Origin: a virus
Length of the DNA stretch: 64,000 nt
Reading direction: 5' to 3' (one strand)
IMG/VR virus record: IMGVR_UViG_3300040807_002082
Coordinates: 13,681 to 77,680 of that record
In this document: positions 13,568-34,982 of the stretch, piece by piece
How positions within the stretch are numbered: the first letter of the stretch is position 1
Layout of the letters: every line of letters begins with the position of its first letter
Program-made: the position numbers and the translations under genes
The notes under the pieces: generated by a model
Told to the model about the DNA's origin: nothing
Seen by the model: only the letters and a program-made list of their open reading frames with translations
Databases searched by the model: none

Positions 13568-13876
13568 GTGGACGTTGAAACAAAATAAAGACGGATCGGA
13601 CTCGGGTGCGATTCCCGACGCCTCCACCAAAAGCACACAGTCTACTGGTGAATGAGATAACAATGCTCATAATAAAAGTCCAAACTGTGTGTTTTTGATG
13701 GGGGCGAATTAGGATCGACGGACGTAATAGTTGAGTGGAGTTCACCGTGTTGACCTACGTTATTCGGTCAAACAAACTAAATGCAAACGATAACTTTGCA
13801 CCATCTGAATCATTTGCTCTAGCAGCATGATCACAGGGGGCTGGCCACTTGCCTAGCAACAGAAAAGTGGTTTTTT
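13568..13876 (+). ncRNA. ssrA: Permuted (two-piece) tmRNA, tag ANDNFAPSESFALAA; outer ends approximate
   Basis: T-arm plus CGCCTCC-ACCA ending 13629 lies BEFORE GGGGGCG at 13700 (7-bp acceptor stem with G3-U70); tag ORF 13783-13830; TTGACA at 13533. Confidence 0.93.
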
Positions 13877-20647: not shown

Positions 20648-22065
20648 TGATTGAGAAAACAGTTTTAACTAACCTTATATTTAATGAAGATTATTATCGT
20701 CGAGTGTATCCATACATTAAGTCTGAATACTTTGATGATATTAGTCATAAGAAAATCTTTGATACTTATTCACATTATGTTGAAGAATTTAAGGAGCCTC
20801 CGTCAATTGAGGCTCTGAAAATTTCTATTGATAAACGCAAAGATTTGAATGAAGATGCCTATAAGAATGTAATGGATCAAGTTTCCGAAATGAAACGAGA
20901 TCCTGATACTAATCTTGATTGGCTGGTTAGTGAAACTGAAAAGTTCTGTCAAGACAAGGATTTGTTTAATGCTATTCGCAAAGCAATCCTTGTTATTGAT
21001 GGAGAAGATAAAGAACTGGATAAAGGTTCATTACCTGAGCTTTTATCTAATTCGCTCTCAATTAGTTTTGATACTTCTATTGGTCATGATTATCTTGAAG
21101 ATTATGAAGGCCGATATGATTTCTATCACAAGAAAGAAGAACGCCTTCCGTTTGATATTGACCTTCTAAACAAGGTCACTAAAGGCGGCTTACCACGCAA
21201 GTCAATGTCTGTGCTCCTTGCAACAACCGGCGGTGGTAAGTCGCTCGTCAAATGTCATATGGCTGCAAGCTATTTGATGCACGGTAAGAATGTTCTTTAC
21301 ATTACAATGGAAATGGCCGAAGAACGTATTGCTGAACGTATTGACGCCAATATGATGGATGTTACCATTGACGAATTAAAAGAACTCCCCAGAGATGTTT
21401 ACGAAAAAAGAATTGGTCGTATTCAATCAAAAACAACGGGCAAGCTTGTCGTTAAGGAATATCCAACAGGTTCGGCACACGTCGGCCATTTCCGCCATTT
21501 ATTAAATGAACTACGTATGAAACGTGGTTTTACCCCTGATGTTGTCTTTATTGACTATCTAAATATTTGTGCAAGCGCTCGAGTAAAAGGTGCCGCTGCA
21601 GCTAATTCATATACACTTGTAAAATCAATTGCGGAGGAAGTTCGTGGCCTTGCTATGGAGTATAATTGCGCTGTCGTTACTAGTTCTCAGTTTAACCGCG
21701 ACGGCTACGGGAACTCAGACGTTGACCTTACTAACACTTCTGAGTCTATGGGGATCACTCATACTGCTGACTGTATCCTCGGCTTAATTACATCAGAAGA
21801 TCTTGATAATCTTGGTCAACTTATGATTAAGCAACTTAAAAATCGTTGGGGCGACTTGAGTTATTACCGTCGGTTTGTTGTCGGTATTGACCGAGCAAAA
21901 ATGAAAATCTATGACCTTGAAGATTCAGCTCAGAACGGAGTTTCTCAAGACGGACCGCAGGCAGGCAAATTGCCAAAGCCTGATAACGATGCTCCGATAT
22001 TTGACAAAGGTTCATTTGGTACAAAAAGTAAGAAAGGACTGTTTTCTGCAGGAGATTTAATGTGA
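20647..22065 (+). CDS. 41: Replicative helicase gp41
   Basis: Walker [31 protein letters not shown]. Confidence 0.96.
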
Positions 22066-22406
22066 CGTATTTAGTTACGGACAACTGTATAAAATGTAAA
22101 CATACCGATTGTGTTGCAGTTTGTCCGGTTGATTGTTTTTATGAAGGTGACGATATGCTTGTAATTGATCCAGACGAATGTATTGATTGCGGTGTGTGCG
22201 TTCCTGAATGTCCTGTTGATGCTATCATTGCAGATGTAGATTTGCCCGAACCTGATAGATCTAAATGGATTGAAATTAATACTGTGTATAGCGACAAGTG
22301 GCGCTATAACAATATTACCGAGCAAAAAGATCCGTTACCCGATGCTGAAGATTGGGACGGAGTACCAAATAAGTATGAAGCGTTCATGGATAAGGAGATA
22401 AAATGA
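22062..22406 (+). CDS. fdxA: Dicluster Fe-S ferredoxin (FdxA type)
   Basis: [18 protein letters not shown]...[13 protein letters not shown]. Confidence 0.92.
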
Positions 22407-22642
22407 GCTACGTTGTTGTTGACGATAATTACATTCTTGAAAAAGAATCAAATCATAAGCTTTATTTCAACGAGACAAAGCACCAGCTTAACAAAATTAC
22501 ACGTAAGTTAAACCTTGGGGCAGGATTTCAAGGATTTACTCCACTCTTTATGTGCAGCCCTCTCAGATCAACTTTTATAAATAACTGTAAAGAAACACAG
22601 TTAGAATCAGGGTTAACATGCAAACGTTTAAGCAGCACCTAA
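22403..22642 (+). CDS. Hypothetical protein
   Basis: AGGAG RBS, ATGA overlap. Confidence 0.6.
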
Positions 22643-23724
22643 ATGAAGCCACTGGCGGCTATATACATTTTCCTAAATCAGATGATGAGGTTGATGCTCT
22701 CGACTTTATACCTGACGAAAAGAAAGATGCCTTAAAAGATCTTCTCAAAACAATTCAAACAAACAAGTCAGGAGTTAAAGATCCTATTGCGTTGGATGCT
22801 TCAAATCCAAACAACGTAAAGGTAATGAGAACACTTGCTCTCGACTTTGATCTTAAAGCTCTATCAACAAATTACGGGTTTAAGGTATCGGCAGGTAACG
22901 GATCCCGTGGAGGTGGTGGTTCTAAATCAAAAGGTTTTGCATTTGAAGATCAAATCATTCAAGACGTTGAAAAGTATATTGCGCAAGGTCCTGATGCTGA
23001 TTTCCAATTCCCAGACATGATGTCAGCAATGCATAATTCCTTTCTAAAGGATGCGCAATCAATTAGTGTACGATCTGACGGCGCAGCAAATACAAAACGT
23101 CCATTGCAGGTTACAGACGCTTCATTACTAATCGGCGGAAGAGATTTAAACGTTGGTCCACGAGTTACTGATGTAACTGTTACGGCTGACGGTGTTCCAT
23201 ATTATCTATCAGCAAAATTTGGTGGTACGGTTACTTTCTTTAACGTAGGAGTAACGAAGGTATTCCCTGCATCTGAATTTGAAGCAGGCAAATTCAAATC
23301 GCGTGAAGCACTTAGTATTTTAAAGGCATTCGGAATTGACGAGAAAGAGTTTATTAATATCTTTACGTCATACGATCCTAGAGCGGCAAAGCGCGGCGGC
23401 AAGAAAACACGCATTGACGTAACAAAGAAAATCAATAAAAGAATGCTGCAGCAAATGCTGTTAACTGGTGTTGGATACGGTTATTGGATGGTGCACCAAA
23501 AAGGCAAGAAGGTTGAGTTTTACGAAATGACTAAACGTAAAATGATGCAGTCTGCAAAAATACAAAAGGTCACAATCTTATATCCTGAACCAGGCTCTGC
23601 AAAGCGTTTGGATATTGAAGTATTAACTCCTCGTTATGAATTTAAAATAAATATTCGTAATAAGCAAGGTGGATTATATCCATCTCATATTATGGCAGAC
23701 TATAAATATAGAAGTAATGATTAA
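22618..23724 (+). CDS. Putative head-internal protein with possible PD-(D/E)xK-like fold
   Basis: Late promoter 22576-22583; leader [10 protein letters not shown]; AFE...TDV...YLSAK. Confidence 0.55.
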   Translation: MQTFKQHLNEATGGYIHFPKSDDEVDALDFIPDEKKDALKDLLKTIQTNKSGVKDPIALDASNPNNVKVMRTLALDFDLKALSTNYGFKVSAGNGSRGGGGSKSKGFAFEDQIIQDVEKYIAQGPDADFQFPDMMSAMHNSFLKDAQSISVRSDGAANTKRPLQVTDASLLIGGRDLNVGPRVTDVTVTADGVPYYLSAKFGGTVTFFNVGVTKVFPASEFEAGKFKSREALSILKAFGIDEKEFINIFTSYDPRAAKRGGKKTRIDVTKKINKRMLQQMLLTGVGYGYWMVHQKGKKVEFYEMTKRKMMQSAKIQKVTILYPEPGSAKRLDIEVLTPRYEFKINIRNKQGGLYPSHIMADYKYRSND

Positions 23725-24010
23725 TTTTCGCAAATATCTTTCTGAAGGCATTAAGCTCAAATTGATTCGTGGTAAGGATCAAGATGTTTTAAAGATGTGG
23801 GATACGAAAGAAAAGAGTTGGGTAGAACTAAGAGGAAAACCAGATTTTGAGCGAAGATACGATCCAAAAGATCCATTACACAAAGCAATTGCTGCTATTG
23901 GCAAGTCGGCTAACATTTCTGATTTTGTTAATGGAGACGAGGTCAGCATTAATCCGAACCATCCAGATGGTAAAAAGGCATTACAGACAATTAAAAAGTT
24001 GATGAAATGA
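23717..24010 (+). CDS. Putative head-internal protein
   Basis: Late promoter 23701-23708; leader MINFRKYLSE. Confidence 0.6.
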   Translation: MINFRKYLSEGIKLKLIRGKDQDVLKMWDTKEKSWVELRGKPDFERRYDPKDPLHKAIAAIGKSANISDFVNGDEVSINPNHPDGKKALQTIKKLMK

Positions 24011-25236
24011 AACGATTTAAGCAATACATAGCCGAAGAAAAGAATCTTCATATGACTCACGCCGAGGACGCAATCATCGACGGCGGGGTAACTGGTACAC
24101 GTAATGTAATTAACCATTTACGTGATCTACGCGATATGCTAAAGGGTAATTCAAAATCCTCAGTAAACGTTAGTGTTAAATGGGACGGTGCTCCTGCGGT
24201 ATTCTGTGGTATAGACCCAAGCGATGGTGAATTCTTTGTAGCCAAGAAAGGCATCTTTAATAAAAATCCCAAGGTATATAAAACATATGCCGATATTGAT
24301 GCCGACACTAAAGGGGATTTAAATGCAAAATTGAAAGTTGCCTTGGACGAGTTTAGCAAACTTGGAATCCAAGGTGTAGTTCAGGGTGATTTTTTATATG
24401 AAAGAAGTGATATTAAAGAGGATACAATTGACGGGGAACCGCATATTACTTTCCATCCTAATACGATTGTTTACGCGGTACCTAAAAACTCAGACCTCGG
24501 TAAGGAAATACTCGGATCCAAGGTCGGAGTGGTCTGGCATACAGTATACCGAGGACCAAGCTTTGAAGAAATGTCTGCAAGTTTTGGAGAGGAGATATTA
24601 CCTAATCTCAAAAAAGTAAGCTCGGTATGGCAAGTAGATGCTGTCTTTAAAGATCAGTCAGGTACAGCAACAATGACTGCTAAAGAAACCGCAAAGCTTC
24701 AAGGTATTTTATCAAAGGCAGGTAAATTATTTCGTTCTATTCCAGCACAAGTATTAAACGATATGGGCAAGAACGAAGATCTTAATATGAGAATCAATAC
24801 TTATATTAATAAAAAGGTTCGTGCTGGAGAACGTGTTGGTAAGCCAACGGTATTTGTTAATGGATTGGAAAAATATCTTAACGATTATTTTGCTGCTGAA
24901 ATTGCCGCAAAGAAATCAGCAAAAGGTAAAGCCAATTGGACAAAGAAACAAGACGAAGCAATGGAATTCTTTAAAAGAAATAAGAAGGCTGATATTGCTC
25001 GAGCATTTGAAATGTATAACCTCATCGTTGACGCAAAGCATATGATTGTTCGTCAACTCGAAAAGGTCGGTGGCCTAAAAACATTATTGAAAACGGCAGA
25101 CGGTTATGAAGTAACCGGGCAAGAAGGATTCGTTGCTATTGACCGTTATGGAAAGAATGCTCTTAAATTGGTAGATCGTTTACAGTTTTCTGCTGCAAAC
25201 TTTTCAGATACATATATCAAAGGATGGCAACGATAA
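24007..25236 (+). CDS. Putative head-internal protein with ATP-dependent ligase-like motifs
   Basis: Leader MKRFKQYIAE; KWDG, VQGDF, EGFV and LK motifs in order. Confidence 0.6.
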   Translation: MKRFKQYIAEEKNLHMTHAEDAIIDGGVTGTRNVINHLRDLRDMLKGNSKSSVNVSVKWDGAPAVFCGIDPSDGEFFVAKKGIFNKNPKVYKTYADIDADTKGDLNAKLKVALDEFSKLGIQGVVQGDFLYERSDIKEDTIDGEPHITFHPNTIVYAVPKNSDLGKEILGSKVGVVWHTVYRGPSFEEMSASFGEEILPNLKKVSSVWQVDAVFKDQSGTATMTAKETAKLQGILSKAGKLFRSIPAQVLNDMGKNEDLNMRINTYINKKVRAGERVGKPTVFVNGLEKYLNDYFAAEIAAKKSAKGKANWTKKQDEAMEFFKRNKKADIARAFEMYNLIVDAKHMIVRQLEKVGGLKTLLKTADGYEVTGQEGFVAIDRYGKNALKLVDRLQFSAANFSDTYIKGWQR

Positions 25237-25514
25237 TGGCTTGGGTAGTAGTACCGGGATCAAACGGTGTATGGGAATACGATAACGCGCCTACACTGGA
25301 AACATTAGCTCCTGGCGCAAAAGTACATCCTGACGACCAATATTACCGCGAGGCTAACGGCACGGTAACTGCTGGAATTAGATCATTTACTCCTTCGGGC
25401 GGTAATACACAAGAAACATACGTCAAATGTCGTAAAGTTGGAAATGACTATCCAACTAGAACAGTTGGCCCTTGGGGCGAACTAAATAAAAACTATTACG
25501 ACGAGAGGATTTAA
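25224..25514 (+). CDS. Hypothetical, probably virion, protein
   Basis: Beta-rich ORF in a late operon. Confidence 0.6.
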   Translation: MATIMAWVVVPGSNGVWEYDNAPTLETLAPGAKVHPDDQYYREANGTVTAGIRSFTPSGGNTQETYVKCRKVGNDYPTRTVGPWGELNKNYYDERI

Positions 25515-25517
25515 TAA

Positions 25518-26825
25518 ATGGCACAGTTTAATACCAGCACAGGCGAACTACTAAACAACAATAAAACACTTTACGAAGTTGTTATGACATCTGGGCAGGC
25601 AGGCCCTTCCACATATGTTCCTGCTGGTAATCTAAACTCTGGTTCGGACGCATTTGGTAGAACCAGAATTTCGCAACCACTAACACTGTTTGATAGTTCA
25701 CATAGATATGCTGATAACGATTTGTGGGCAGAGGGTACTACTGGAACTGCAAGTAGCACATTTAACTCAAATGCTGGTTTGGTTGAACTTGATGTTGGCA
25801 GTGCAAGTGGTGATGAGATCATTCGTGAAACAACAAAGGTTTTCGCATATCAACCAGGCAAATCATTGTTGATTATGAATACATTTGCTTTTGATGCACC
25901 CAAAACAAACCTAAGACAACGTGTGGGGTATTTTGGCACAGATAATGGTATTTACTTAGAACAAGATGGAACTGATGTTAATATTGTTGAAAGAAGTCTT
26001 GTCACTGGTTCTGTAACCGAAACTAGAATTGCACAATCTAATTGGAATGTTGATACAATGGATGGAACTGGACGTTCCAACTTAACACTAGACTTAACTA
26101 AAGCACAAATCCTTTGGATGGATTTGGAATGGTTAGGACTTGGTAGTGTAAGAGTAGGATTCGTTATCAATGGACAATTTGTTTGTTGTCATATCTTCCA
26201 TCACGCAAATTTGGTTGACTCAACGTATATCACAACTGCATCTCTTCCTCTAAGACAAGAGATTACGAATACTGGATTAACCTCTGGTGCGAGTCAAGCG
26301 AAACAAGTTTGTGCTACTGTTATATCTGAGGGTGGTTATGAACTAAGAGGTAGACAACACGCAGTTGGAACTCCAATTACAGCCGCATATGAAATGGCAT
26401 CTGCTGGAACATATTATCCTATAGTCTCATTGAGATTGAAGTCTGCTAGACTAGATGCTATTGTTATTCTTACAGCAGTATCAATGTTGGGAGTTGGTAA
26501 TGGAGTGAACTTCTCTTGGAGAATTGTTGCTGGTGGAAATGTTACTACTGCATCTTGGACTAGTGCTGGAACAAATTCATCTGTTGAATATACAACATCT
26601 GGAACAGCACATGATGGTGGTGGTAGAGTTCTTGCACAAGGTTACTTGAACTCATCTAATCAAGGTTCGCCATCAATGGATATTCTCAAAGAAGCGTTGT
26701 TCAAATTTCAGTTAGAAAGAGACACATTCACATCAACAGCAGAACCTATAACATTCTTGGTTGCTCCAGGCACTGCCGATGAAGATGTATTTGCATCAAT
26801 GGATTGGGAAGAGATTACTCGCTGA
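25518..26825 (+). CDS. Probable virion structural protein (beta-rich)
   Basis: G/S/T-rich, 435 aa; DAFGR.R.S.P.TLFD motif familiar from T4-like virion proteins. Confidence 0.65.
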   Translation: MAQFNTSTGELLNNNKTLYEVVMTSGQAGPSTYVPAGNLNSGSDAFGRTRISQPLTLFDSSHRYADNDLWAEGTTGTASSTFNSNAGLVELDVGSASGDEIIRETTKVFAYQPGKSLLIMNTFAFDAPKTNLRQRVGYFGTDNGIYLEQDGTDVNIVERSLVTGSVTETRIAQSNWNVDTMDGTGRSNLTLDLTKAQILWMDLEWLGLGSVRVGFVINGQFVCCHIFHHANLVDSTYITTASLPLRQEITNTGLTSGASQAKQVCATVISEGGYELRGRQHAVGTPITAAYEMASAGTYYPIVSLRLKSARLDAIVILTAVSMLGVGNGVNFSWRIVAGGNVTTASWTSAGTNSSVEYTTSGTAHDGGGRVLAQGYLNSSNQGSPSMDILKEALFKFQLERDTFTSTAEPITFLVAPGTADEDVFASMDWEEITR

Positions 26826-26979
26826 CATAATGTCACTGTTGCATTATAAGCAATCCGGCTATATCAAATTGGTAAGGCTTATTTACCTATTTTCCTAATA
26901 AATATGATTGTAAAAGGGTTAATCTTTAGAATAGACTAAAGACCGGATCACATACATACATATACATTAGGAGAGTAAA

Positions 26980-27234
26980 ATGACACAAGTAATTCTTGCA
27001 GCAACTGATGCGTTGCACATTCCAGCGGTACTAGACTTCTTCCGCGATTTAAAAAGAAGTTATAAAAAAAGACAAGATCGAAAAGAAACAATCAAACAAT
27101 TATCAGCACTTTCAAATAGAGAACTCAATGATATGGGTATTTCTAGAGGTGATATTTGGGCAATTGCAAATGGTGATCCTTCATATAATCGCAGAAAAGT
27201 TTCAGAAAATGATAACTTGAAGGGTTGGGTGTAA
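26980..27234 (+). CDS. DUF1127/YjiS-like small protein
   Basis: R.TIKQLSALSNRELNDMGISRGDI signature. Confidence 0.88.
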   Translation: MTQVILAATDALHIPAVLDFFRDLKRSYKKRQDRKETIKQLSALSNRELNDMGISRGDIWAIANGDPSYNRRKVSENDNLKGWV

Positions 27235-27410
27235 TGGATACGGTAATGAAATACACATTCGCGCCATTGTCCGGTTTCTGGGATCGCTTTATGAAAGTTA
27301 CAGAAATCATGGGTTATAGTAGAGCAGCAGCTCATCTTGCTTCAATGGGTTTACACGAAGAAGCAAAAAACTGTATGATGCAAATCAAAGAACTCAAAAA
27401 TAACCATTGA
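27234..27410 (+). CDS. Small hypothetical protein coupled to the DUF1127 gene
   Basis: TAATG coupling; GYSRAAAHLASMG. Confidence 0.65.
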   Translation: MDTVMKYTFAPLSGFWDRFMKVTEIMGYSRAAAHLASMGLHEEAKNCMMQIKELKNNH

Positions 27411-27483
27411 CATTTTGGTTATAACCTGATATAAATAATAGGGTAGGAGTAATTCTGCCCTTTATTTATGAACAGGTGAGGTT

Positions 27484-28095
27484 ATGCATATACACAACTT
27501 ATTCCCAACTCCAATTGGAGAATTTTCTTACGGGGAAGATATGGCCCCGTTTTCAGAAATTGTAAAATCTGAAGGTTATCAAAAACATATTAAAAACGGT
27601 AGCGGTAATAGATATTCTGACCACAACGTATTATCGTATGATTCATTTGGCCCATTAAGGGAATGGATTGATAAATGCCTTCAAGAATATTATCAACACA
27701 CCTTTGTCCCTCTCGAACAGCAACACCCACAAGAACTGTACATTACAGAGTCTTGGGTTAATTATGCAAATAACTCTGAATCGCACGAGTGGCACAATCA
27801 TACTAACTCTATAATATCAGGTGTGTTTTATATTGAAGCAACTGATGATGCAATTGAGTTCAAATCACCAAAGCCTTATAATCAAATCATGCCCGAGCCA
27901 GATTACTTTAACGAGTATAACTCGTCTCAATGGTGGCTGCCTGCAAGAACAGCAACTTTATATTTGTTCCCATCTTGGCTACATCACGGCGTTCCTGTAT
28001 TTGAAAACCGAGAAGAAGATAGGATCAGTATTGCATTTAATACATTCTTAAAGGGCATCGTCAGTCGAAGATTGTCTTCAAGATTAGAGATATAA
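27484..28095 (+). CDS. 2OG-Fe(II) oxygenase-like protein
   Basis: LFPTPI, SWVN, H.H.NS.ISGVFY, LFPSWL.H.V, RISIAFN. Confidence 0.85.
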   Translation: MHIHNLFPTPIGEFSYGEDMAPFSEIVKSEGYQKHIKNGSGNRYSDHNVLSYDSFGPLREWIDKCLQEYYQHTFVPLEQQHPQELYITESWVNYANNSESHEWHNHTNSIISGVFYIEATDDAIEFKSPKPYNQIMPEPDYFNEYNSSQWWLPARTATLYLFPSWLHHGVPVFENREEDRISIAFNTFLKGIVSRRLSSRLEI

Positions 28096-28116
28096 ATAGT
28101 TTTAAAGGAGTATATA

Positions 28117-28692
28117 ATGGATTTATCATGGTTACCTGATGATGGTGGAACTGGGCATATGCCACCTTCCGATGAAGTTATCAGTTTTTGGCAAACAGTC
28201 AAACAAAAGACAGGCTTTAAAAAATTAGTAGAAATTGGATTTAATGCTGGTCATAGCAGTTCTATTCTATTAACCTTGTTTGATGATATCACAATTCAAT
28301 CGTTTGACATTGGACAGTTTGACATCACGCACTCGAACGGAAAGCTGGTAAAAGAAAGATTTGGCGACCGCTTTAATCTTACAATCAAACCATCAGAACA
28401 AATTACATACGGAGAAGTAAATGGATCTGACATTCTGTTTATTGATGGCGGACACGATTATCCTATCGTATCTGGAGACGTAGACTTGTGGGAAAACTCA
28501 AACATCCCTTACGTCATCATTGACGACCTCCAAATCAACGGAGTTAAAAGAGCGCATCGTGAGCTTGTTTCGCGGAATAAGGTAGAAGCAATTTATAAAC
28601 ATTATTATACCGCGGTGCTTCCATCTTGGATGAGAGACAATCCAAACAACCGTCCAGTTAATGTACCAATTGAGGTTTTGATGAGAAAATGA
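28117..28692 (+). CDS. SAM-dependent methyltransferase
   Basis: EIGFNAGHS, FIDGGHDY, IIDD; late promoter 28091-28098. Confidence 0.85.
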   Translation: MDLSWLPDDGGTGHMPPSDEVISFWQTVKQKTGFKKLVEIGFNAGHSSSILLTLFDDITIQSFDIGQFDITHSNGKLVKERFGDRFNLTIKPSEQITYGEVNGSDILFIDGGHDYPIVSGDVDLWENSNIPYVIIDDLQINGVKRAHRELVSRNKVEAIYKHYYTAVLPSWMRDNPNNRPVNVPIEVLMRK

Positions 28693-29384
28693 AAACGCTA
28701 ATATATCAGTACTATTATTCCTTACCACAGAATAAACGTACGCATCATATTATGGATGACAGTAACAATTACCACGAACTATCTGCGCACAGCATTAGGC
28801 GTTACGCGTTAGAACATGGACACGATTATAAATTCTTAGATCAAGAACATCCCGTGTCACCTTTTTATGGTATTTTCTTACCATTTACCGAAGGTTGGTG
28901 TCACGATTATGACGCGATTTGTTGGATGGACGCTGATATATTAGCAACAACTCACGCAAAAGATGTGTTTTCAAAATACAACGCAGGTAAGATATCGGCA
29001 TACTTCATGGAAACACAAAATCGTTGGAAAGGTAAACCTGACGATAGTCCTTGGGGATGGTTTAAAGATAAAGGCCATATTAATTCTGGCGTTGTTATAT
29101 TTCCAAAATCAACGTATCATTATATAACTAACTTTGTATCAGACTTACAGCATTTGCATGATACGAGAACAGAACTTGAAACATCGCTTGGGAATTTTGA
29201 CCAGGCAATTGTAAATAAGATCGTTCGTAACTTAGATTCATATCAAGAATTAAAGCGTGAATGGAATTATCATTTAGGACGGTATCCACAAGAGGATAGA
29301 TTTGACGCAAACCTTATTCACTATTGGCGTCAATTCAAAGGACAGATGAGAAAAGACTTTGAGGATGAAAGAATTTTAAAATGA
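28689..29384 (+). CDS. GT-A glycosyltransferase (GT34/GT8-like)
   Basis: WMDADI (DxD), INSGVV, DQA.VN, WN, IHY. Confidence 0.8.
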   Translation: MKTLIYQYYYSLPQNKRTHHIMDDSNNYHELSAHSIRRYALEHGHDYKFLDQEHPVSPFYGIFLPFTEGWCHDYDAICWMDADILATTHAKDVFSKYNAGKISAYFMETQNRWKGKPDDSPWGWFKDKGHINSGVVIFPKSTYHYITNFVSDLQHLHDTRTELETSLGNFDQAIVNKIVRNLDSYQELKREWNYHLGRYPQEDRFDANLIHYWRQFKGQMRKDFEDERILK

Positions 29385-29998
29385 AAAAAGTGATATGTAT
29401 GGGATCAGGCAAGAATATGGTCCTTATAAACGATTGGGATACAGATGGGATTAAAATTTGCGGGGTTAACAACACTTGGCGTGGCACTGATAAATGGGAT
29501 GTGCTATTACATGCTGGCGACTATCCCCATAAACGAGAAGTTCAAGCCGCTAGAAAAAGACAAGAACAGTTAATTGTTTCTCGAGAAGGTGTAATGGGAT
29601 TTAAGCAATCCTATATGGGAATGTCAAATATGCCTTGGGAACAGGCAAGAATCTTTTTAGGTTTGCCTATTTACTTTACTATGACGTATTGGGCTCTATG
29701 GCATTTAAAACCTGACGCAATTGGTTTCATTGGTTTTGACATGAATTATACCGCAGGTCCTAATGGTGAAACCGCATTTTATGGCGAAGGCTATGATATG
29801 AAAACGCGTGGAGTACCTGATCCTTTATATCAATTCCGAACCGTTCCTGAATATAAAAAGGAAGGTGAGAATATGATTAACATTCTTTTTGATAGATTAA
29901 AAGAACGCACCACCGCTCGCTTAGTCAATCTTTCAGACGATCCTACCAGTATTCTACCTTGGGATCAAGTAACCTTTGAGGAATTTAAATCATGGTAA
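29381..29998 (+). CDS. Putative Maf/GT42-like transferase
   Basis: VICMGSG...ICGVN...IGFIGFDM pattern. Confidence 0.4.
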   Translation: MKKVICMGSGKNMVLINDWDTDGIKICGVNNTWRGTDKWDVLLHAGDYPHKREVQAARKRQEQLIVSREGVMGFKQSYMGMSNMPWEQARIFLGLPIYFTMTYWALWHLKPDAIGFIGFDMNYTAGPNGETAFYGEGYDMKTRGVPDPLYQFRTVPEYKKEGENMINILFDRLKERTTARLVNLSDDPTSILPWDQVTFEEFKSW

Positions 29999-30663
29999 TT
30001 TGTGAAAAGCATAACTTCTTATATTTGCGTATTCCTAAAAACGCAAGCTCAAGTTTAGCAGCATTCTTTATTAAAAACTTTTGTGCAATGTCTGATCGTT
30101 GGACGGAAGTAAATGATGCCGCAATCCGAGATCATAAAGTTGACGTTAATGTAATTAACAAATATAGACACCAATACCGTTGGATTCATTTAACGTTGCA
30201 AGAACTTGTTGATAATAAGATCGTTACCACATATGATGCTCATAATAAAGATGTAATATCTGTTTTGCGCAATCCTTATATGCGTCAGCTATCTTTATAC
30301 TTTTTTCTAAAACGCGGTATGAGCAAATCAGCTGATGAGTTTCGGCATATCTTTAGAGAAGGCAAACATGAGTCTGATGTGTCAAACGCAATCCTTCAAA
30401 CAGAATATTCTTTATTAAATGGTGTTGACTGTGGTACTTGGTGGTTGTATAATAAATTAGATACACACGTTAAAAACTTTTGTAACGTAAAAGGCGTTAA
30501 TAGTTCTTTAGAATTGCCAAAGTATAAAGGCACATGGACTCCTAAAGACCAAGACTTGTTTGATGAATATTACGATCAGAAAACAATTGATGCTGTTCAG
30601 AAGTATTATGAAAAGGATTTTGAGAAATTATTTGAATTAGAAACAGGACTACAGGTGGCATGA
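29992..30663 (+). CDS. Sulfotransferase family 2
   Basis: LRIPKNASSS (5'-PSB), LRNPY.R.LS.Y (3'-PB), YEKDF. Confidence 0.8.
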   Translation: MVICEKHNFLYLRIPKNASSSLAAFFIKNFCAMSDRWTEVNDAAIRDHKVDVNVINKYRHQYRWIHLTLQELVDNKIVTTYDAHNKDVISVLRNPYMRQLSLYFFLKRGMSKSADEFRHIFREGKHESDVSNAILQTEYSLLNGVDCGTWWLYNKLDTHVKNFCNVKGVNSSLELPKYKGTWTPKDQDLFDEYYDQKTIDAVQKYYEKDFEKLFELETGLQVA

Positions 30664-31334
30664 AAGTTTACATCTTATATCATAACGACCCTTTATCAAA
30701 ACAATATGCGGACTTTGCGGCAAAATCGTGCCAGCAAACAAATATGAATTATGAATTGGTTGAAGGTTTTTCTGAACCAATGAATCCTAATGATGCTTGG
30801 AACAGTATTGGATTAAAGCGAAAAATTGAAAGAAACAACTTTGTTCCTAAAGCACAATTATGTTCAGCAGGTCACGCAAAAATTTGGAAAATGATTTCAG
30901 AAAGTGATGAGGAAGGCATTGTATTTGAACACGATGCCGTTATGTTACACGATATTAATGAGATTGAATTTCCAGATAATATGATTGTGGTCCTAGGCTA
31001 TAAAGTAAAAGATGCCAACAAATATTTACATGACCAGGCAGGTCCTCCTCAATATATTCGAGATTTGAAAGGACACGAAGGTGCACACGCATATGGGATG
31101 ACGCCAGCAACTGCAAGAAAACTACTCGATGAGATTGAAGAAATTGGAGTATGGTCTGCAGTTGATAACCAATTCTTTTTAGCAGATCAACGTAAAAGCA
31201 AGGTTCCTTTAGGCATTCTTGATCCAACACCAGCAATCGGTTGGTTGCGCCAATCAACAATTTGGGGTAACTCATCAGAAAAGAATTACGAATTTATAGA
31301 TTCATTTAAAAATAACTATTATGGAGACCAATAA
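30660..31334 (+). CDS. GT25-like glycosyltransferase
   Basis: CSAGH..IW, VFEHDA, GAHAY.MTP..A.KL, VD. Confidence 0.75.
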   Translation: MKVYILYHNDPLSKQYADFAAKSCQQTNMNYELVEGFSEPMNPNDAWNSIGLKRKIERNNFVPKAQLCSAGHAKIWKMISESDEEGIVFEHDAVMLHDINEIEFPDNMIVVLGYKVKDANKYLHDQAGPPQYIRDLKGHEGAHAYGMTPATARKLLDEIEEIGVWSAVDNQFFLADQRKSKVPLGILDPTPAIGWLRQSTIWGNSSEKNYEFIDSFKNNYYGDQ

Positions 31335-31336
31335 CA

Positions 31337-32089
31337 ATGTGGCAGCTAACCGACTCGACTCCACGCGAATTTAGATATTATCAGTTTGGGCTACAAAGAA
31401 CAGGCACGACAATTATTGACCGAATCATTAGGGATAATTGGAACTATTGGAAAGCAAATGATGCAGAACAAAATTTGCCAAAGCCTTTTACTTTGCAGCC
31501 TCAACCAGATACCGTTTGGAAACACGCGATTGATATTCCACCAAACTATGACCAAAACGCGCCGACAATTTTAGTATATAAAAGCCCATATACTTGGGCT
31601 GAAAGTATGGCATTCCGTAGAGGTTTGGGCAATGGCGCCTGGAACCAAAGTTGGGGTCACGAGCATTTGAATCTTTATCCTCAACCAAAGCCAGGTTGGA
31701 ATAACGTCACAATGCCAGGTCAAGGTACAGTTAACATTGGTCAGATTATGTACGTTTATAAACACTGGTTTAATACTTGGCTTCCATTTGTTGAAGAACA
31801 TCCTGACAATACAGTCTTGATTAAATATGAAGATTTGCTTGTTGATGAGAAACGCAATGAGATCTTTAAGGATATTACTACCAAATTTGGTTGGGATATT
31901 ATTGAAAATCCAACAATGCCAAAACACGTAGGTTCATCTCAGCCTATGGATCAAGAACGTATTGACTACTACCTAAAAGGCAGACCAACGCAAGAAATGT
32001 TCTATCAACACGGTAGAAGGTACTTAAATTCTATTAATGACATCCTTGGGCACGAATTAATTACACGCCTGGGATACGAATTCTTATAA
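31337..32089 (+). CDS. Sulfotransferase-like protein
   Basis: GLQRTGTT, WKH, KSPY.W.ES, IKYEDL. Confidence 0.7.
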   Translation: MWQLTDSTPREFRYYQFGLQRTGTTIIDRIIRDNWNYWKANDAEQNLPKPFTLQPQPDTVWKHAIDIPPNYDQNAPTILVYKSPYTWAESMAFRRGLGNGAWNQSWGHEHLNLYPQPKPGWNNVTMPGQGTVNIGQIMYVYKHWFNTWLPFVEEHPDNTVLIKYEDLLVDEKRNEIFKDITTKFGWDIIENPTMPKHVGSSQPMDQERIDYYLKGRPTQEMFYQHGRRYLNSINDILGHELITRLGYEFL

Positions 32090-32129
32090 ATAGAATTAAA
32101 TGTTTCCAAGTTAAAAGCACAGGATTTTC

Positions 32130-34568
32130 TTGATGTCAGAAGATGAGAAAAAAGAAAAAGAAAAGCGTAAAAGCTTCAAAGAATTTGATCCAACTAAGTA
32201 TGTGGATGTTGAGCCTACATTAGATGAGGCCGCAAAAGGAACTGCGGTTATTAGTTTTGGCCGAATGAATCCTGTTACTTCAGGACACGAAAGGCTTGTC
32301 AATAAAGTATTGGCGGTGGCTGCTCAAGCAAAAGGTACTCCACTCATTTATCTTTCTCATTCTGAAGATACAAGAAAGAATCCTTTATCATATAACGATA
32401 AAATCAAATTTGCCAAACAAGCGTTTGGTAGCGTTATTCAAAAATCCAAATCAAGAACAATTATTGAAGTAGCAAAAGAGCTATCTGGAAAATACGCAAA
32501 CCTTATCGTTGTTGTAGGTTCAGACAGAGTTGCTGAATTTAATTCGCTTTTAAGTAAGTATAATGGTAAAGAATATAACTTTCAAGTAATTGATATACAG
32601 ACCGCAGGTGCGCGCGATCCTGATTCTGAAGGCGTAGAAGGTATATCAGCATCTAAAATGCGTTCTTATGCCGCGGATAATGATCTTAATCAATTTAAAA
32701 AAGGTTTGCCAAAACGGCTGCAAAGAAATGCAGATGAAGTTATGAATGCAGTTAGACAAGGCATGAACATAAACGAGACACTAGAGATGGATGACTCAGA
32801 ATTAAATGAAGTATTAGATAGACAACAACGTCGTGCAAAAGCAATTGCTATGCGTCGTGTTAAGCATAAGTTAAAACGCGGCCGTGAAAAAATGAAACGC
32901 AAAAAGGCAACAACCGAGATCCTTAAGAAGCGTGCTACAAAGAAAGCCATAGCAACATTTAAAGATAAGTTTTCAAAGAATAAGCGTTATGCTGATATGG
33001 ACGTTGCGCAAAAGATTCAAATTGACAAAAAGATTGAGAAATTAGGCAAGGCTCGTATTGAACGCATCGCAAAGAAATTACTTCCAAAAGTTAAAGCGGC
33101 TGAAAGAGATAAGTTTAAGAAAAAGGCCATCGACAATCCTTTAACGCAAAAACAAGAATCTTATGAGATTAACGAAAAGATTAAGGTTGCGCAGGATAGA
33201 GATATTGATGATATGCCAGGTTCTCAGCCTGCAGGATATTACAAAGGTGTAGATAAAGATAAGAAAGATGATCGCGCCCGTCACTTTGCTCGTAAAGCAA
33301 AAATGGATGACGATAATCCTAAAGCATATACACCAGCACCCGGCGATAAAGAAGCAAAGACAAAACCATCAACATTTACGAAAAAATACAAAGCAATGTA
33401 TGGAGAAATGAACGAATGGGTTTGCGGTCAATGCAATTGCGATCCTTGTACATGTGATAGCGATTTACTTGAGATGTGGGGATCATACGTAACAAAACGT
33501 CCTCATATGCTAATGGATCGGAATAATAAAGTCAAATACGATAAAAGATTCAAGATGTATAAGCCTGCGCATAAACCTGAAGACGATGCTGCAATTGAGG
33601 ATGATACAATTGAAGAATCCGTATTCAGCGAGATTTCAAACCTAGAAGAGTTATTAGATTTAGTAGAATCTACTGAAGAAATGTTTGGCAATCTTGAAGA
33701 GAAACAGATTGAAGGTCTAAAGAATAAAGCTGACAAATCAGGAATGCCATATGGTATTTTGAAAAAGGTTTACGACCGAGGAATGGCAGCTTGGAGAACA
33801 GGACATCGACCAGGAACAACTCCACAACAATGGGGTATGGCTCGAGTTAACTCATTCGTAACAAAGTCAAAAGGCACGTGGGGTAAAGCAGATTCTGACC
33901 TTGCGGCAAAAATTCGTAAAGAAGGAATAGAAGAAATGAATGAAGCAGCAACACCTCAGATGAAAAAGGCGGCCTCTGAAATTGAAGCATATGCAAAGAA
34001 AAGCGGTGGCATTGATAAAGCAGACTTTATGAAAGCAGCAAAGATGCTATCAACTGGCAAAGCAGGTTCAAGCTTTATTAAATTTGTAATGGATCTTGAT
34101 ACAGAACCACGTGAATGGTTAATCGTTACTCTTGCTAAACATATGGGCAAGGAAACTGTTGAAAAAATGTTCAGAATTAAAATTCGCGAAGAAGTTGAGC
34201 TTGATGAAACTTTATCACCATCTGAAAAGAAACTTGTCAATCAAATGTATGATAAGAAAGGTAACCTTACTGCGATTGGTAAAAAGGTTATGAACCACGG
34301 TAAAAAGCCTGGTGATAAAGGTTATGTTGAATCAATTGACGAAATGTTTCCTGCGGTTGCAGCAATCGCTGGCCGTGCAGTTGCAGGCGCTGCGGCAAGA
34401 GCGATTGCCAAAAAGAAAAAAGATGAAGCTTCTGAATACGAGAAAACACGCCGTAAGACAATTAAATCTGTTGAGAGCTTTAAGCAATTCAGAGAAGAAG
34501 GCGGTGCTGGCGAAGAAGGTACTGACGAGCTTGTAAAGAATTTCAAAAAGGACACGCCAAATGCCTAA
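32130..34568 (+). CDS. HxGH-superfamily nucleotidyltransferase fused to a chain of small modules; putative head-internal polyprotein
   Basis: FGRMNPVTSGH, VVGSDR, SASKMR; late promoter 32085-32092; basic modules separated by acidic (L/I/M)xE linkers. Confidence 0.75.
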   Translation: MMSEDEKKEKEKRKSFKEFDPTKYVDVEPTLDEAAKGTAVISFGRMNPVTSGHERLVNKVLAVAAQAKGTPLIYLSHSEDTRKNPLSYNDKIKFAKQAFGSVIQKSKSRTIIEVAKELSGKYANLIVVVGSDRVAEFNSLLSKYNGKEYNFQVIDIQTAGARDPDSEGVEGISASKMRSYAADNDLNQFKKGLPKRLQRNADEVMNAVRQGMNINETLEMDDSELNEVLDRQQRRAKAIAMRRVKHKLKRGREKMKRKKATTEILKKRATKKAIATFKDKFSKNKRYADMDVAQKIQIDKKIEKLGKARIERIAKKLLPKVKAAERDKFKKKAIDNPLTQKQESYEINEKIKVAQDRDIDDMPGSQPAGYYKGVDKDKKDDRARHFARKAKMDDDNPKAYTPAPGDKEAKTKPSTFTKKYKAMYGEMNEWVCGQCNCDPCTCDSDLLEMWGSYVTKRPHMLMDRNNKVKYDKRFKMYKPAHKPEDDAAIEDDTIEESVFSEISNLEELLDLVESTEEMFGNLEEKQIEGLKNKADKSGMPYGILKKVYDRGMAAWRTGHRPGTTPQQWGMARVNSFVTKSKGTWGKADSDLAAKIRKEGIEEMNEAATPQMKKAASEIEAYAKKSGGIDKADFMKAAKMLSTGKAGSSFIKFVMDLDTEPREWLIVTLAKHMGKETVEKMFRIKIREEVELDETLSPSEKKLVNQMYDKKGNLTAIGKKVMNHGKKPGDKGYVESIDEMFPAVAAIAGRAVAGAAARAIAKKKKDEASEYEKTRRKTIKSVESFKQFREEGGAGEEGTDELVKNFKKDTPNA

Positions 34569-34662
34569 GAAGCCTTTAAAGGAAGCAATTAAAGAAGCTA
34601 CCGAAAAAGGTAAGTATGCGCCTCCTAGGCCAAAGAAAGTAACTGGCAGGAAAAAGAAATGA
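34561..34662 (+). CDS. 33-aa Lys-rich peptide
   Basis: AAGGA RBS; bridges both neighbours by overlap. Confidence 0.5.
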   Translation: MPKKPLKEAIKEATEKGKYAPPRPKKVTGRKKK

Positions 34663-34982
34663 AACGTTTTAAACAATACCTAGATGAAGATTGTTGGTCA
34701 GGATATAAACAGGTCGGCATGAAAAAGAAAGGTGACAAGATGGTACCTAACTGTGTACCTGAAGAAGCGGAGATTGAAGAAGGTTCTGAAACTTGGGAGC
34801 AAGGTTATAAACGCCGTGTTGTAAAAACAACTAAACCTGAACATAAAGAAAAAGGTTATAATTGGCGTATTAAAGGTAAAGATCGTCCTGAAATTTCAAT
34901 TAAACTTTATAAAGAAAAGCCATCTCAACAAGAGTTTAACAAACAAATGAAAAGAGTAGCGGGGCACGAGTTCGGTGGATAA
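34659..34982 (+). CDS. Putative head-internal two-module protein
   Basis: Leader MKRFKQYLDE; CW.GYKQ.GMKKKG...VPNCVP module; IEE linker. Confidence 0.65.
   Translation: MKRFKQYLDEDCWSGYKQVGMKKKGDKMVPNCVPEEAEIEEGSETWEQGYKRRVVKTTKPEHKEKGYNWRIKGKDRPEISIKLYKEKPSQQEFNKQMKRVAGHEFGG

Follow-up and report, generated by a model that had tools for sequence, protein, structure and literature searches.

The gene at positions 24007 to 25236 of the 64,000-nucleotide stretch that we analyzed (the window; positions 13,681 to 77,680 of IMG/VR virus record IMGVR_UViG_3300040807_002082) encodes a 409-residue member of the Pfam family DUF6267. We predict, based on its motifs and its modeled structure, that DUF6267 is a previously unrecognized family of the covalent nucleotidyltransferase (polynucleotide ligase) superfamily. 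The protein begins with a ten-residue leader that resembles the capsid-targeting sequences of T4 internal proteins, and this leader suggests that it is probably an enzyme injected with the phage DNA. Taken as a whole, we regard this explanation as evenly balanced between being right and being wrong, and we grade its parts separately below. The window comes from a 77.7-kb contig of an uncultured T4-like myophage that is estimated to be 37% complete, and nearly all of the window genes are on the + strand.

The window protein matches PF19782 (DUF6267) with an E value of 4e-109 and 365.9 bits (cutoff, 27) over model positions 1 to 373 of 376, which exceeds the gathering threshold over the whole model. 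It also belongs to phrog_455, for which no function is given. DUF6267 comprises 2570 clusters at 50% identity (E up to 1e-3) and occurs in 449 phage records, mostly from Synechococcus and Prochlorococcus myophages, every one of which annotates it as hypothetical; phages of Pelagibacter, Methylophilales, Vibrio, Pseudoalteromonas, and Stenotrophomonas also carry it. The family name was not found in searchable papers, a literature search pairing Syn9 with gp183 found nothing, and an ESM Atlas search with the DUF6267 protein returned only unnamed viral clusters.

An initial annotation, made from the sequence alone, had proposed that this open reading frame (ORF) carries the ordered motifs of an ATP-dependent ligase or capping nucleotidyltransferase, namely KWDG, VVQGDFL, QEGFVA, and ALKLV, with a helical insert ahead of motif IV. 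All four strings are present in that order (Table 1), and KWDG falls exactly at positions 24178 to 24189. Across 83 aligned cluster representatives, each 34 to 53% identical to the window protein, the invariant columns are H18, K58, D60, G61, G68, P71, K81, G127, D128, N152, Y156, G174, H178, T179, and G183 in the N-terminal half and N268, E373, G374, K387, F394, and N398 in the C-terminal part. The residues of KxDG, GD, and EG and the motif V lysine are all among these columns that never vary, which is beyond what chance would give, and the K-x-D-G lysine, K58, is at the position of the superfamily nucleophile. Motifs III, IIIa, IV (EG), and V (K) follow in the order that is typical of the superfamily and are on beta strands, with F149, N152, and Y156 of the motif IIIa region on or between strands 144 to 149 and 155 to 159 of the model described below. 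There are two deviations from the superfamily norm: motif III has Asp as its acidic residue where Glu is usual, and a single Lys stands in place of the KxK of motif V. The short, leaderless cyanophage forms (Syn9 gp183 and the S-CREM2 protein) keep the same catalytic-type residues but lack two surface segments and some of the helical module.

An AlphaFold2 model built on this alignment has a mean predicted local distance difference test score (pLDDT) of 93.9 and a predicted template modeling score (pTM) of 0.90, and only residues 1 to 10 are below a pLDDT of 50. K58 ends strand 54 to 58, G127-D128 lie within strand 124 to 132, E373-G374 are at strand 374 to 378, and K387 is within strand 385 to 388. 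The insert ahead of motif IV is an all-helical module of 128 residues in the model; its weak resemblance to YqeY (Z 7.0, 77 residues) does not rise above the noise that helical bundles produce. In a fold search independent of Foldseek, made against 48,161 representative chains, RNA ligases are at ranks 1 to 6, 8, and 9, with 178 to 205 residues aligned that span both halves of the split domain. The matches include NgrRnl (5cot; Z 8.4, 187 residues aligned), Trypanosoma brucei REL1 (1xdn; Z 8.2, 196 residues), T4 Rnl2 (1s68; Z 7.4, 183 residues), a fungal tRNA ligase (6n0t; Z 7.2, 205 residues), T4 Rnl1 (9do4; Z 7.0, 178 residues), and archaeal Rnl3 (5d1o; Z 6.7, 193 residues), a Z of 7 to 8 being by itself common in such a search. 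Many DNA ligases rank after the RNA ligases, at a Z of about 6. In a second comparison, the match to NgrRnl reached Z 8.8 (6vt3) over its whole adenylyltransferase domain (140 to 339), and the match to T4 Rnl1 reached Z 7.2. Overall, 165 to 205 residues of the predicted structure align with the nucleotidyltransferase domains of RNA and DNA ligases at Z 6 to 8.8, while non-ligase matches align 60 to 130 residues, mostly helical stretches of 60 to 105 residues. Ligase adenylyltransferase domains thus dominate the match lists of the structure prediction and fold search, and the reading of the protein as a ligase or covalent nucleotidyltransferase is supported by the predicted fold together with the conserved motifs.

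The leader that the initial annotation had noted is real and is common to several window proteins. In T4, the ten N-terminal residues suffice for capsid targeting, with residues 4 and 7 mainly responsible, and processing of the targeting sequence depends on residues 8 and 10 (PMC9026906). At these positions the window protein has F4, Y7, I8, and E10, and T4 IPII and IPIII (MKTYQEFIAE at both N termini in the T4 record) have Y4, F7, I8, and E10, which qualifies the window leader as a capsid-targeting-like tag. The pattern M-x-x-F-[KR]-x-[YH]-[LI]-x-E starts four window ORFs of at least 60 residues (at 22618, 23717, 24007, and 34659) and is shared by a fifth ORF of 52 residues. Apart from the leader, the five ORFs are unrelated to one another. 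In a synteny sample of 80 related IMG/VR loci (L058 to L137), the leader starts 59 of the 71 recognizable DUF6267 ORFs, and the strict pattern starts 99 of 1116 ORFs overall; phages of this group seem to use it as an all-purpose tag for loading cargo. Within 14 residues upstream of a conserved NxHxxHxED core, [ILMV]-x-E is present in 189 of 194 relatives, compared with a background of 12%, counting members with at least 8 residues before the core, taking the background from windows elsewhere in the proteins, and with many of the sequences being related to each other. Of 16 forms whose N terminus is extended by a long stretch (fused forms), 15 also have the site, which fits with release of the DUF6267 module from such forms by a protease. 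A gp21-type prohead protease is encoded by all four of the complete DUF6267-bearing relatives that we checked. Based on these sequence features, packaging of the leader-bearing window copy in the head is fairly probable. The claim of the initial annotation that the protein is injected is plausible given the T4-like leader, the [ILMV]-x-E site, a late-promoter motif ahead of the operon, and the gp21-type protease of the relatives, with packaging itself an inference from these signs.

Several results weigh against this explanation. Foldseek found nothing in the PDB at an E value below 0.2, with DNA and RNA ligases as its rows of highest probability, and a Z of 8 to 9 can be reached by unrelated models. 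A PDB sequence search with the protein and the family profile gave only chance matches. Profiles of T4-like Rnl1 and Rnl2 were built from the IMG/VR loci and compared by hhalign with the whole protein, its halves, and the protein without the insert; there was nothing significant against Rnl2, and the E values against Rnl1 were 0.2 and, at best, 0.011 (motifs IV and V), which are not significant. The nonsignificant Rnl1 alignment pairs K58 with K99, K81 with K119, E373-G374 with E227-G228, and EGFVA...K387 with EGYVA...K240. The window protein does not match PF01068 or PF09511 at E up to 1, nor does it match PF09414; PF09511 (RNA_lig_T4_1) is weakly matched by 4 of 83 DUF6267 members (best E, 6e-4). 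The model has no C-terminal OB domain with motif VI, since the 22 residues after K387 contain only one short helix, and the protein has no recognized nucleic-acid-binding domain, OB or other. With respect to packaging, the window contig is a 37% complete fragment that lacks the head-gene module, and a gp21 protease was not found on its 77.7 kb. A search for the virion proteome of a phage with a leader-bearing copy turned up none. In addition, the leaderless cyanophage copies of DUF6267 are absent from the virion protein tables of S-SM1, S-PM2, Syn9, and S-CREM2, and the core function of the family is therefore independent of packaging.

Three observations together carry the case for the fold: the hits are consistent in identity, their alignments cover both parts of the split domain, and the motifs are invariant. 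On this predicted structure, a ligase-superfamily fold with a catalytic lysine is very likely. Because its sequence and profile links to Rnl1, Rnl2, and the DNA ligases are weak, we place DUF6267 as a separate member of the superfamily, outside all three of these families. The lack of an OB domain, with so few residues past K387, speaks against the protein being a DNA ligase of the classical type or a capping enzyme, and so the capping activity that the initial annotation had offered as an option is disfavored.

Table 1. Positions in the window of the DUF6267 gene, its motifs, and neighboring features
Feature	Position	Strand	Basis or remark
DUF6267 gene, 409 aa, predicted ligase-fold covalent nucleotidyltransferase	24007..25236	+	Pfam PF19782, AlphaFold2 model, fold matches
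Leader MKRFKQYIAE, residues 1-10, capsid-targeting-like; predicted prohead-protease site after E10	24007..24036	+	Likeness to T4 IPII/IPIII
Family-specific N-terminal motif KNLHMTHAED, residues 12-21	24040..24069	+	At predicted mature N terminus; H18 invariant, H15 at least 90%
Motif I, K58-W-D60-G61, predicted AMP-accepting lysine	24178..24189	+	K58, D60, G61 invariant; end of strand 54-58
K81 in FFVAxK	24247..24249	+	Invariant in the alignment
Motif III-like VVQGDFL, residues 124-130	24376..24396	+	G127, D128 invariant; strand 124-132
Helical module, residues 225-352, between motifs IIIa and IV	24679..25062	+	AlphaFold model; N268 invariant, K344 nearly invariant
Motif IV, QEGFVA, residues 372-377	25120..25137	+	E373, G374 invariant
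Motif V, ALKLVDR (ALKLV, residues 385-389)	25159..25179	+	K387 invariant, R391 at least 90%
UvsX	19583		Gene before the DUF6267 locus
gp41 helicase	20647		Gene before the DUF6267 locus
TATAAATA, T4-type late-promoter-like motif	22576..22583	+	35 nucleotides before ATG 22618, first operon gene
Leader-tagged 368-aa protein	22618..23724	+	phrog_8438; in the hypervariable slot upstream of DUF6267
Leader-tagged 97-aa protein MINFRKYLSE...	23717..24010	+	Stop overlaps DUF6267 ATG (ATGA)
TATAAATA, second copy	32085..32092	+	41 nucleotides before ATG 32133, partner gene
Partner, 811-aa multimodule protein	32133..34568	+	Pfam CTP_transf_like, E 5e-4; DUF5824 (residues 523-589), E 3e-18
Adenylyltransferase-like domain of the 811-aa protein, residues 30-220 (GRMNPVTSGH ... 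ISASKMR)	32220-32792	+	AlphaFold2 and Foldseek
Leader-tagged 107-aa protein MKRFKQYLDE...	34659..34982	+	Homologous to part of C48C1 "cytidyltransferase" ORF
Fifth leader-tagged ORF, 52 aa	35376-35534		Same N-terminal pattern

The order UvsX, gp41, a variable stretch, DUF6267, and a protein with a cytidylyltransferase-like domain is conserved in the 80 loci. DUF6267 follows UvsX and gp41 both in the window and in 46 of the loci, and the cytidylyltransferase-like protein is downstream of DUF6267 in 62 of them, mostly adjoining it and starting 1.25 to 1.9 kb after the DUF6267 start; the loci that lack this partner are mostly truncated contigs. In the window, the partner is displaced from DUF6267 by about 7 kb (25224 to 32089), and this insert carries a virion structural protein gene (25518 to 26825; phrog_1645) and a cassette with a 2-oxoglutarate (2OG)-Fe(II) oxygenase, a methyltransferase, and a sulfotransferase (27484 to 30663 and beyond). 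Residues 30 to 220 of the partner, folded with 48 homologues, gave a pLDDT of 90 and have invariant GRxNPxTxGH and S-x-x-K-x-R, and their best Foldseek matches are phosphopantetheine adenylyltransferase (PPAT; 1o6b, E 1.6e-5) and nicotinamide mononucleotide adenylyltransferase (NMNAT; 1kku, E 5.5e-5). Judged by its modeled fold, the partner is an adenylyltransferase of the PPAT/NMNAT kind, and "cytidyltransferase" is a historical label. DUF6267 is fused to it in both orders, as DUF6267-CTP_transf-DUF5824 and as CTP_transf-DUF6267. The partner has been found in the virions of S-SM1 (T4-GC190; PMC3037559) and S-CREM2 (gp154; PMC10665884). The N terminus of S-CREM2 gp154 is MKNFSSFLTE, which is a leader, and as far as the data reach, the leader and presence in the virion coincide.

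The modules of the 811-residue protein are the adenylyltransferase domain, Lys/Arg-rich stretches, DUF5824, and others, with acidic (L/I/M)-x-E sites between them, and from its sequence it may be a polyprotein that is cut by the prohead protease. In S-PM2 (NC_006820; locus L051, 4007 to 5786), the DUF6267 match is split, with the N-terminal half in S-PM2p141 (192 aa) and the remainder in the 5' part of S-PM2p142, which is annotated as a cytidyltransferase; a frameshift, a sequencing error, or a true fusion might each explain the split. PF18766 (SWI2_SNF2) is weakly matched by 11 of 83 DUF6267 members (best E, 3e-4), probably for compositional reasons, and in P0124, the sole member in which we located the match, it covers part of the nucleotidyltransferase core and the helical insert.

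In the mechanism that we propose, the gene and its neighbors for leader-tagged proteins would form an operon with coupled translation, transcribed late from TATAAATA at 22576. The ten-residue leader would bring the protein into the prohead core, a gp21-type prohead protease would cut the leader off after I-A-E10, and the mature enzyme would exit the head together with the DNA. In the cell, Lys58 of K-W-D-G would attack ATP to form enzyme-AMP, and the AMP would be handed to a 5'-phosphate end so that a 3'-OH/5'-PO4 break is sealed, as it is by the nick-sealing enzymes NgrRnl, REL1, and T4 Rnl2. The helical insert may be a substrate-binding module that replaces the OB domain, and the enzyme would act alongside the PPAT/NMNAT-like adenylyltransferase, to which it is fused in some phages. 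We infer catalysis, packaging, cleavage, and injection from family membership, motifs, predicted fold, leader similarity, and synteny. Sealing of polynucleotides, either RNA or DNA, is modestly favored by the model as the activity of DUF6267.

Genes 22618, 23717, 24007, and 25224 overlap or abut, and the ATG at 24007 overlaps the preceding TGA. The T4 late-promoter consensus TATAAATA occurs 12 times in the window, 11 times on the coding strand; 5.75 occurrences would be expected. In the related loci, it is 33 to 42 nucleotides upstream of DUF6267 in 7 of 64, compared with about 1% of random positions, and in about 25 loci it sits 0.8 to 1.5 kb upstream, one gene further. Across positions 22000 to 27500, which include the operon, there is no sigma-70 promoter or terminator signal above chance. 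The 368-residue protein encoded at 22618 to 23724 has no Pfam match, and a homologue is present in only 1 of the 80 loci.

The slot directly upstream of DUF6267 is hypervariable; a strict leader is present in 31 of 71 cases and a near-leader in many more. It is occupied by two families without assigned function (13 and 8 loci), by a HAD DxDxT phosphatase-like family (PF03767, E 8e-6) in six loci (L063, L072, L073, L075, L110, and L118), by a three-locus cluster whose scanned representative, L069, joins an AAA_33/Zeta-type P-loop kinase to a Pol-beta nucleotidyltransferase, and in L128 by a RimK ATP-grasp protein joined to a Zn protease. An AAA_33 kinase is fused to DUF6267 in one family member, and the T4 Pnkp kinase domain matches AAA_33. 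These occurrences are a hint, at the sequence level, of end-healing partners in some DUF6267 relatives, but they are sporadic, and the slot also holds unrelated cargo.

One alternative is that DUF6267 is an intracellular DNA ligase for replication and recombination that takes the place of T4 gp30, a gene missing from marine T4-like phages, with a leader that is incidental or that only adds a few copies to the head. The complete Kyanoviridae genomes of S-CREM2, C48C1, Syn9, and S-PM2 have no match to PF01068, PF01653, PF09414, or PF09511 in a scan in which the T4 control matches PF01068, PF09414, and PF09511, and therefore DUF6267 would be their only ligase-fold gene. The position of DUF6267 after UvsX and gp41 and the lack of leaderless copies in the virion tables also favor such a replacement, and gp30 has been listed with the non-cyanophage core proteins (PMC5349666). 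However, Stenotrophomonas phage DLP6 encodes a gp30-type ligase as well as a leader-tagged DUF6267 of full length (AAY80_066), the latter next to a "cytitidyltransferase" (AAY80_068), and therefore gp30 and DUF6267 are not simple alternatives. This weakens the idea of a simple gp30 substitute. The window operon is headed by a late-promoter motif rather than a replication-gene promoter, the OB domain missing here is present in all DNA ligases of the fold list, and RNA ligases outscore DNA ligases in the fold searches. We consider replacement of gp30 unlikely. The prominence of RNA ligases among the fold matches, including T4 Rnl1 and the fungal tRNA ligase, would instead suit an injected RNA-repair enzyme, comparable to Rnl1 and Pnkp, that rejoins tRNA or other RNA after cleavage by host defense nucleases, ahead of phage gene expression, as the initial annotation had suggested. 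The weak PF09511 matches, the phosphatase-like and kinase/Pol-beta proteins in the adjacent slot, and the AAA_33-DUF6267 fusion also point in this direction. Against it, the T4-type Pnkp phosphatase (PF25109; E 8e-61 in the T4 control) is absent from C48C1, DLP6, Syn9, and S-CREM2; we used PF25109 as the probe because PNK3P (PF08645) is a poor control that matches T4 at only E 2e-4. The gene upstream in the window is unrelated to kinases or phosphatases, adjacency in a hypervariable slot that also takes unrelated cargo may only reflect a cargo island, and the C-terminal tRNA-specificity domain of Rnl1 is absent. RNA repair of this kind is quite unlikely, and the narrower analogy with T4-style repair of tRNA cut by an anticodon nuclease is very doubtful and finds no support, since the window protein reaches no Pfam ligase family and lacks the C-terminal architecture of Rnl1, and since the T4-type Pnkp phosphatase domain is absent from the four complete phage genomes. 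A healing-independent ligase that seals 3'-OH/5'-phosphate nicks is, by analogy, a more economical reading, because the T4-type Pnkp phosphatase is absent and the closest fold matches seal such nicks.

The near-constant adjacency to the adenylyltransferase and the repeated fusions in both orders also bear on whether DUF6267 joins strands at all. Ligase-type and PPAT/NMNAT-type enzymes both form A(5')pp-X linkages, and with this chemistry in common, DUF6267 could be a non-joining Lys-nucleoside monophosphate transferase that works with the partner on a small molecule, a protein, or a nucleic acid end, in adenylylation or a cap-like modification. The invariant residues outside the ligase motifs (H18, N152, Y156, H178, T179, and N268) and the lack of a recognized nucleic-acid-binding domain are consistent with this, but fusions among co-packaged phage proteins need not imply a common pathway, the two motifs that act in nucleotidyl transfer (IV and V) are intact, and no precedent was found in the literature that we searched. 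Such a transferase has a low probability in our judgment. There is quite a small chance that DUF6267 and the PPAT/NMNAT-like enzyme are a two-enzyme system that is preloaded in the head, injected, and active at the start of infection in something more than nick sealing. In that case, an adenylylated compound made by the partner (NAD-like or another A(5')pp-X) might be the donor that the ligase-fold enzyme uses, or the ligase-fold enzyme might adenylylate and cap a nucleic acid end, and the targets might be, for example, nucleotide- or NAD-depleting defenses or end-directed nucleases. Finally, a head protein with a structural or scaffolding role could be catalytically dead and retain only a ligase-like fold, and the membership of DUF6267 in a cluster of leader-tagged, probably head-internal proteins would fit such a role. 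However, the catalytic-type residues are invariant at 34 to 53% identity and are kept in the leaderless cyanophage forms, and loss of catalysis is extremely improbable.

Hundreds of sequenced marine T4-like phages carry DUF6267, yet it is still annotated as hypothetical, and marine cyanomyophages are among the most abundant viruses in the sea. Assigning the family to the ligase superfamily makes the chemistry of a gene found in most sequenced marine cyanomyophages directly testable. The ADP-ribosyltransferase Alt and IPI are known injected proteins of T4, and if packaging is true, a strand-joining enzyme delivered with the genome would stand beside them. It would also mean that the T4 capsid-targeting tag is widely used outside the enteric phages for varied enzyme cargo.

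Among known systems, the best structural match is NgrRnl of Naegleria gruberi (Rnl5 type; 5cot and 6vt3), with Z 8.4 to 8.8 and 186 to 188 residues aligned. K-x-D-G is common to both proteins; PDB titles name NgrRnl K170, D172, E227, E312, and K326, and the spacing from Glu to Lys is 14 residues both for E312/K326 of NgrRnl and for E373/K387 of DUF6267. The two proteins are only 11% identical, and NgrRnl has an N-terminal domain that DUF6267 lacks. Unlike NgrRnl, DUF6267 has the 128-residue helical module before motif IV, its own N-terminal HxxHxED motif, and no match to PF09414. T4 Rnl2 and T. brucei REL1 likewise have the adenylyltransferase fold in common with DUF6267, but the helical domain of Rnl2 is C terminal, while that of DUF6267 is inserted. 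With no Pfam match and a helical module that is not terminal, DUF6267 falls outside the Rnl2/Rnl5 family (PF09414).

T4 Rnl1 is similar to DUF6267 in its fold, in EG[FY]VA at motif IV, and in its T4-like phage origin, but it differs in domain order, in its C-terminal tRNA-specificity domain, and in having Pnkp as a partner, and the window protein is not a member of its family (PF09511). A head-targeting leader is not known from T4 Rnl1. T4 gp30 DNA ligase (PF01068) is in the same superfamily, but it has the OB domain that is absent from DUF6267, DNA ligases score lower structurally, and gp30 and DUF6267 coexist in the Stenotrophomonas phage DLP6. The likeness to T4 IPII and IPIII is in the ten-residue tag, with aromatic residues at positions 4 and 7, I or L at position 8, and E at position 10, and in the occurrence of this tag on unrelated neighboring proteins behind a late promoter. 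The mature parts are unrelated; the T4 cargo is a small basic protein, and the cargo here is predicted to be an enzyme.

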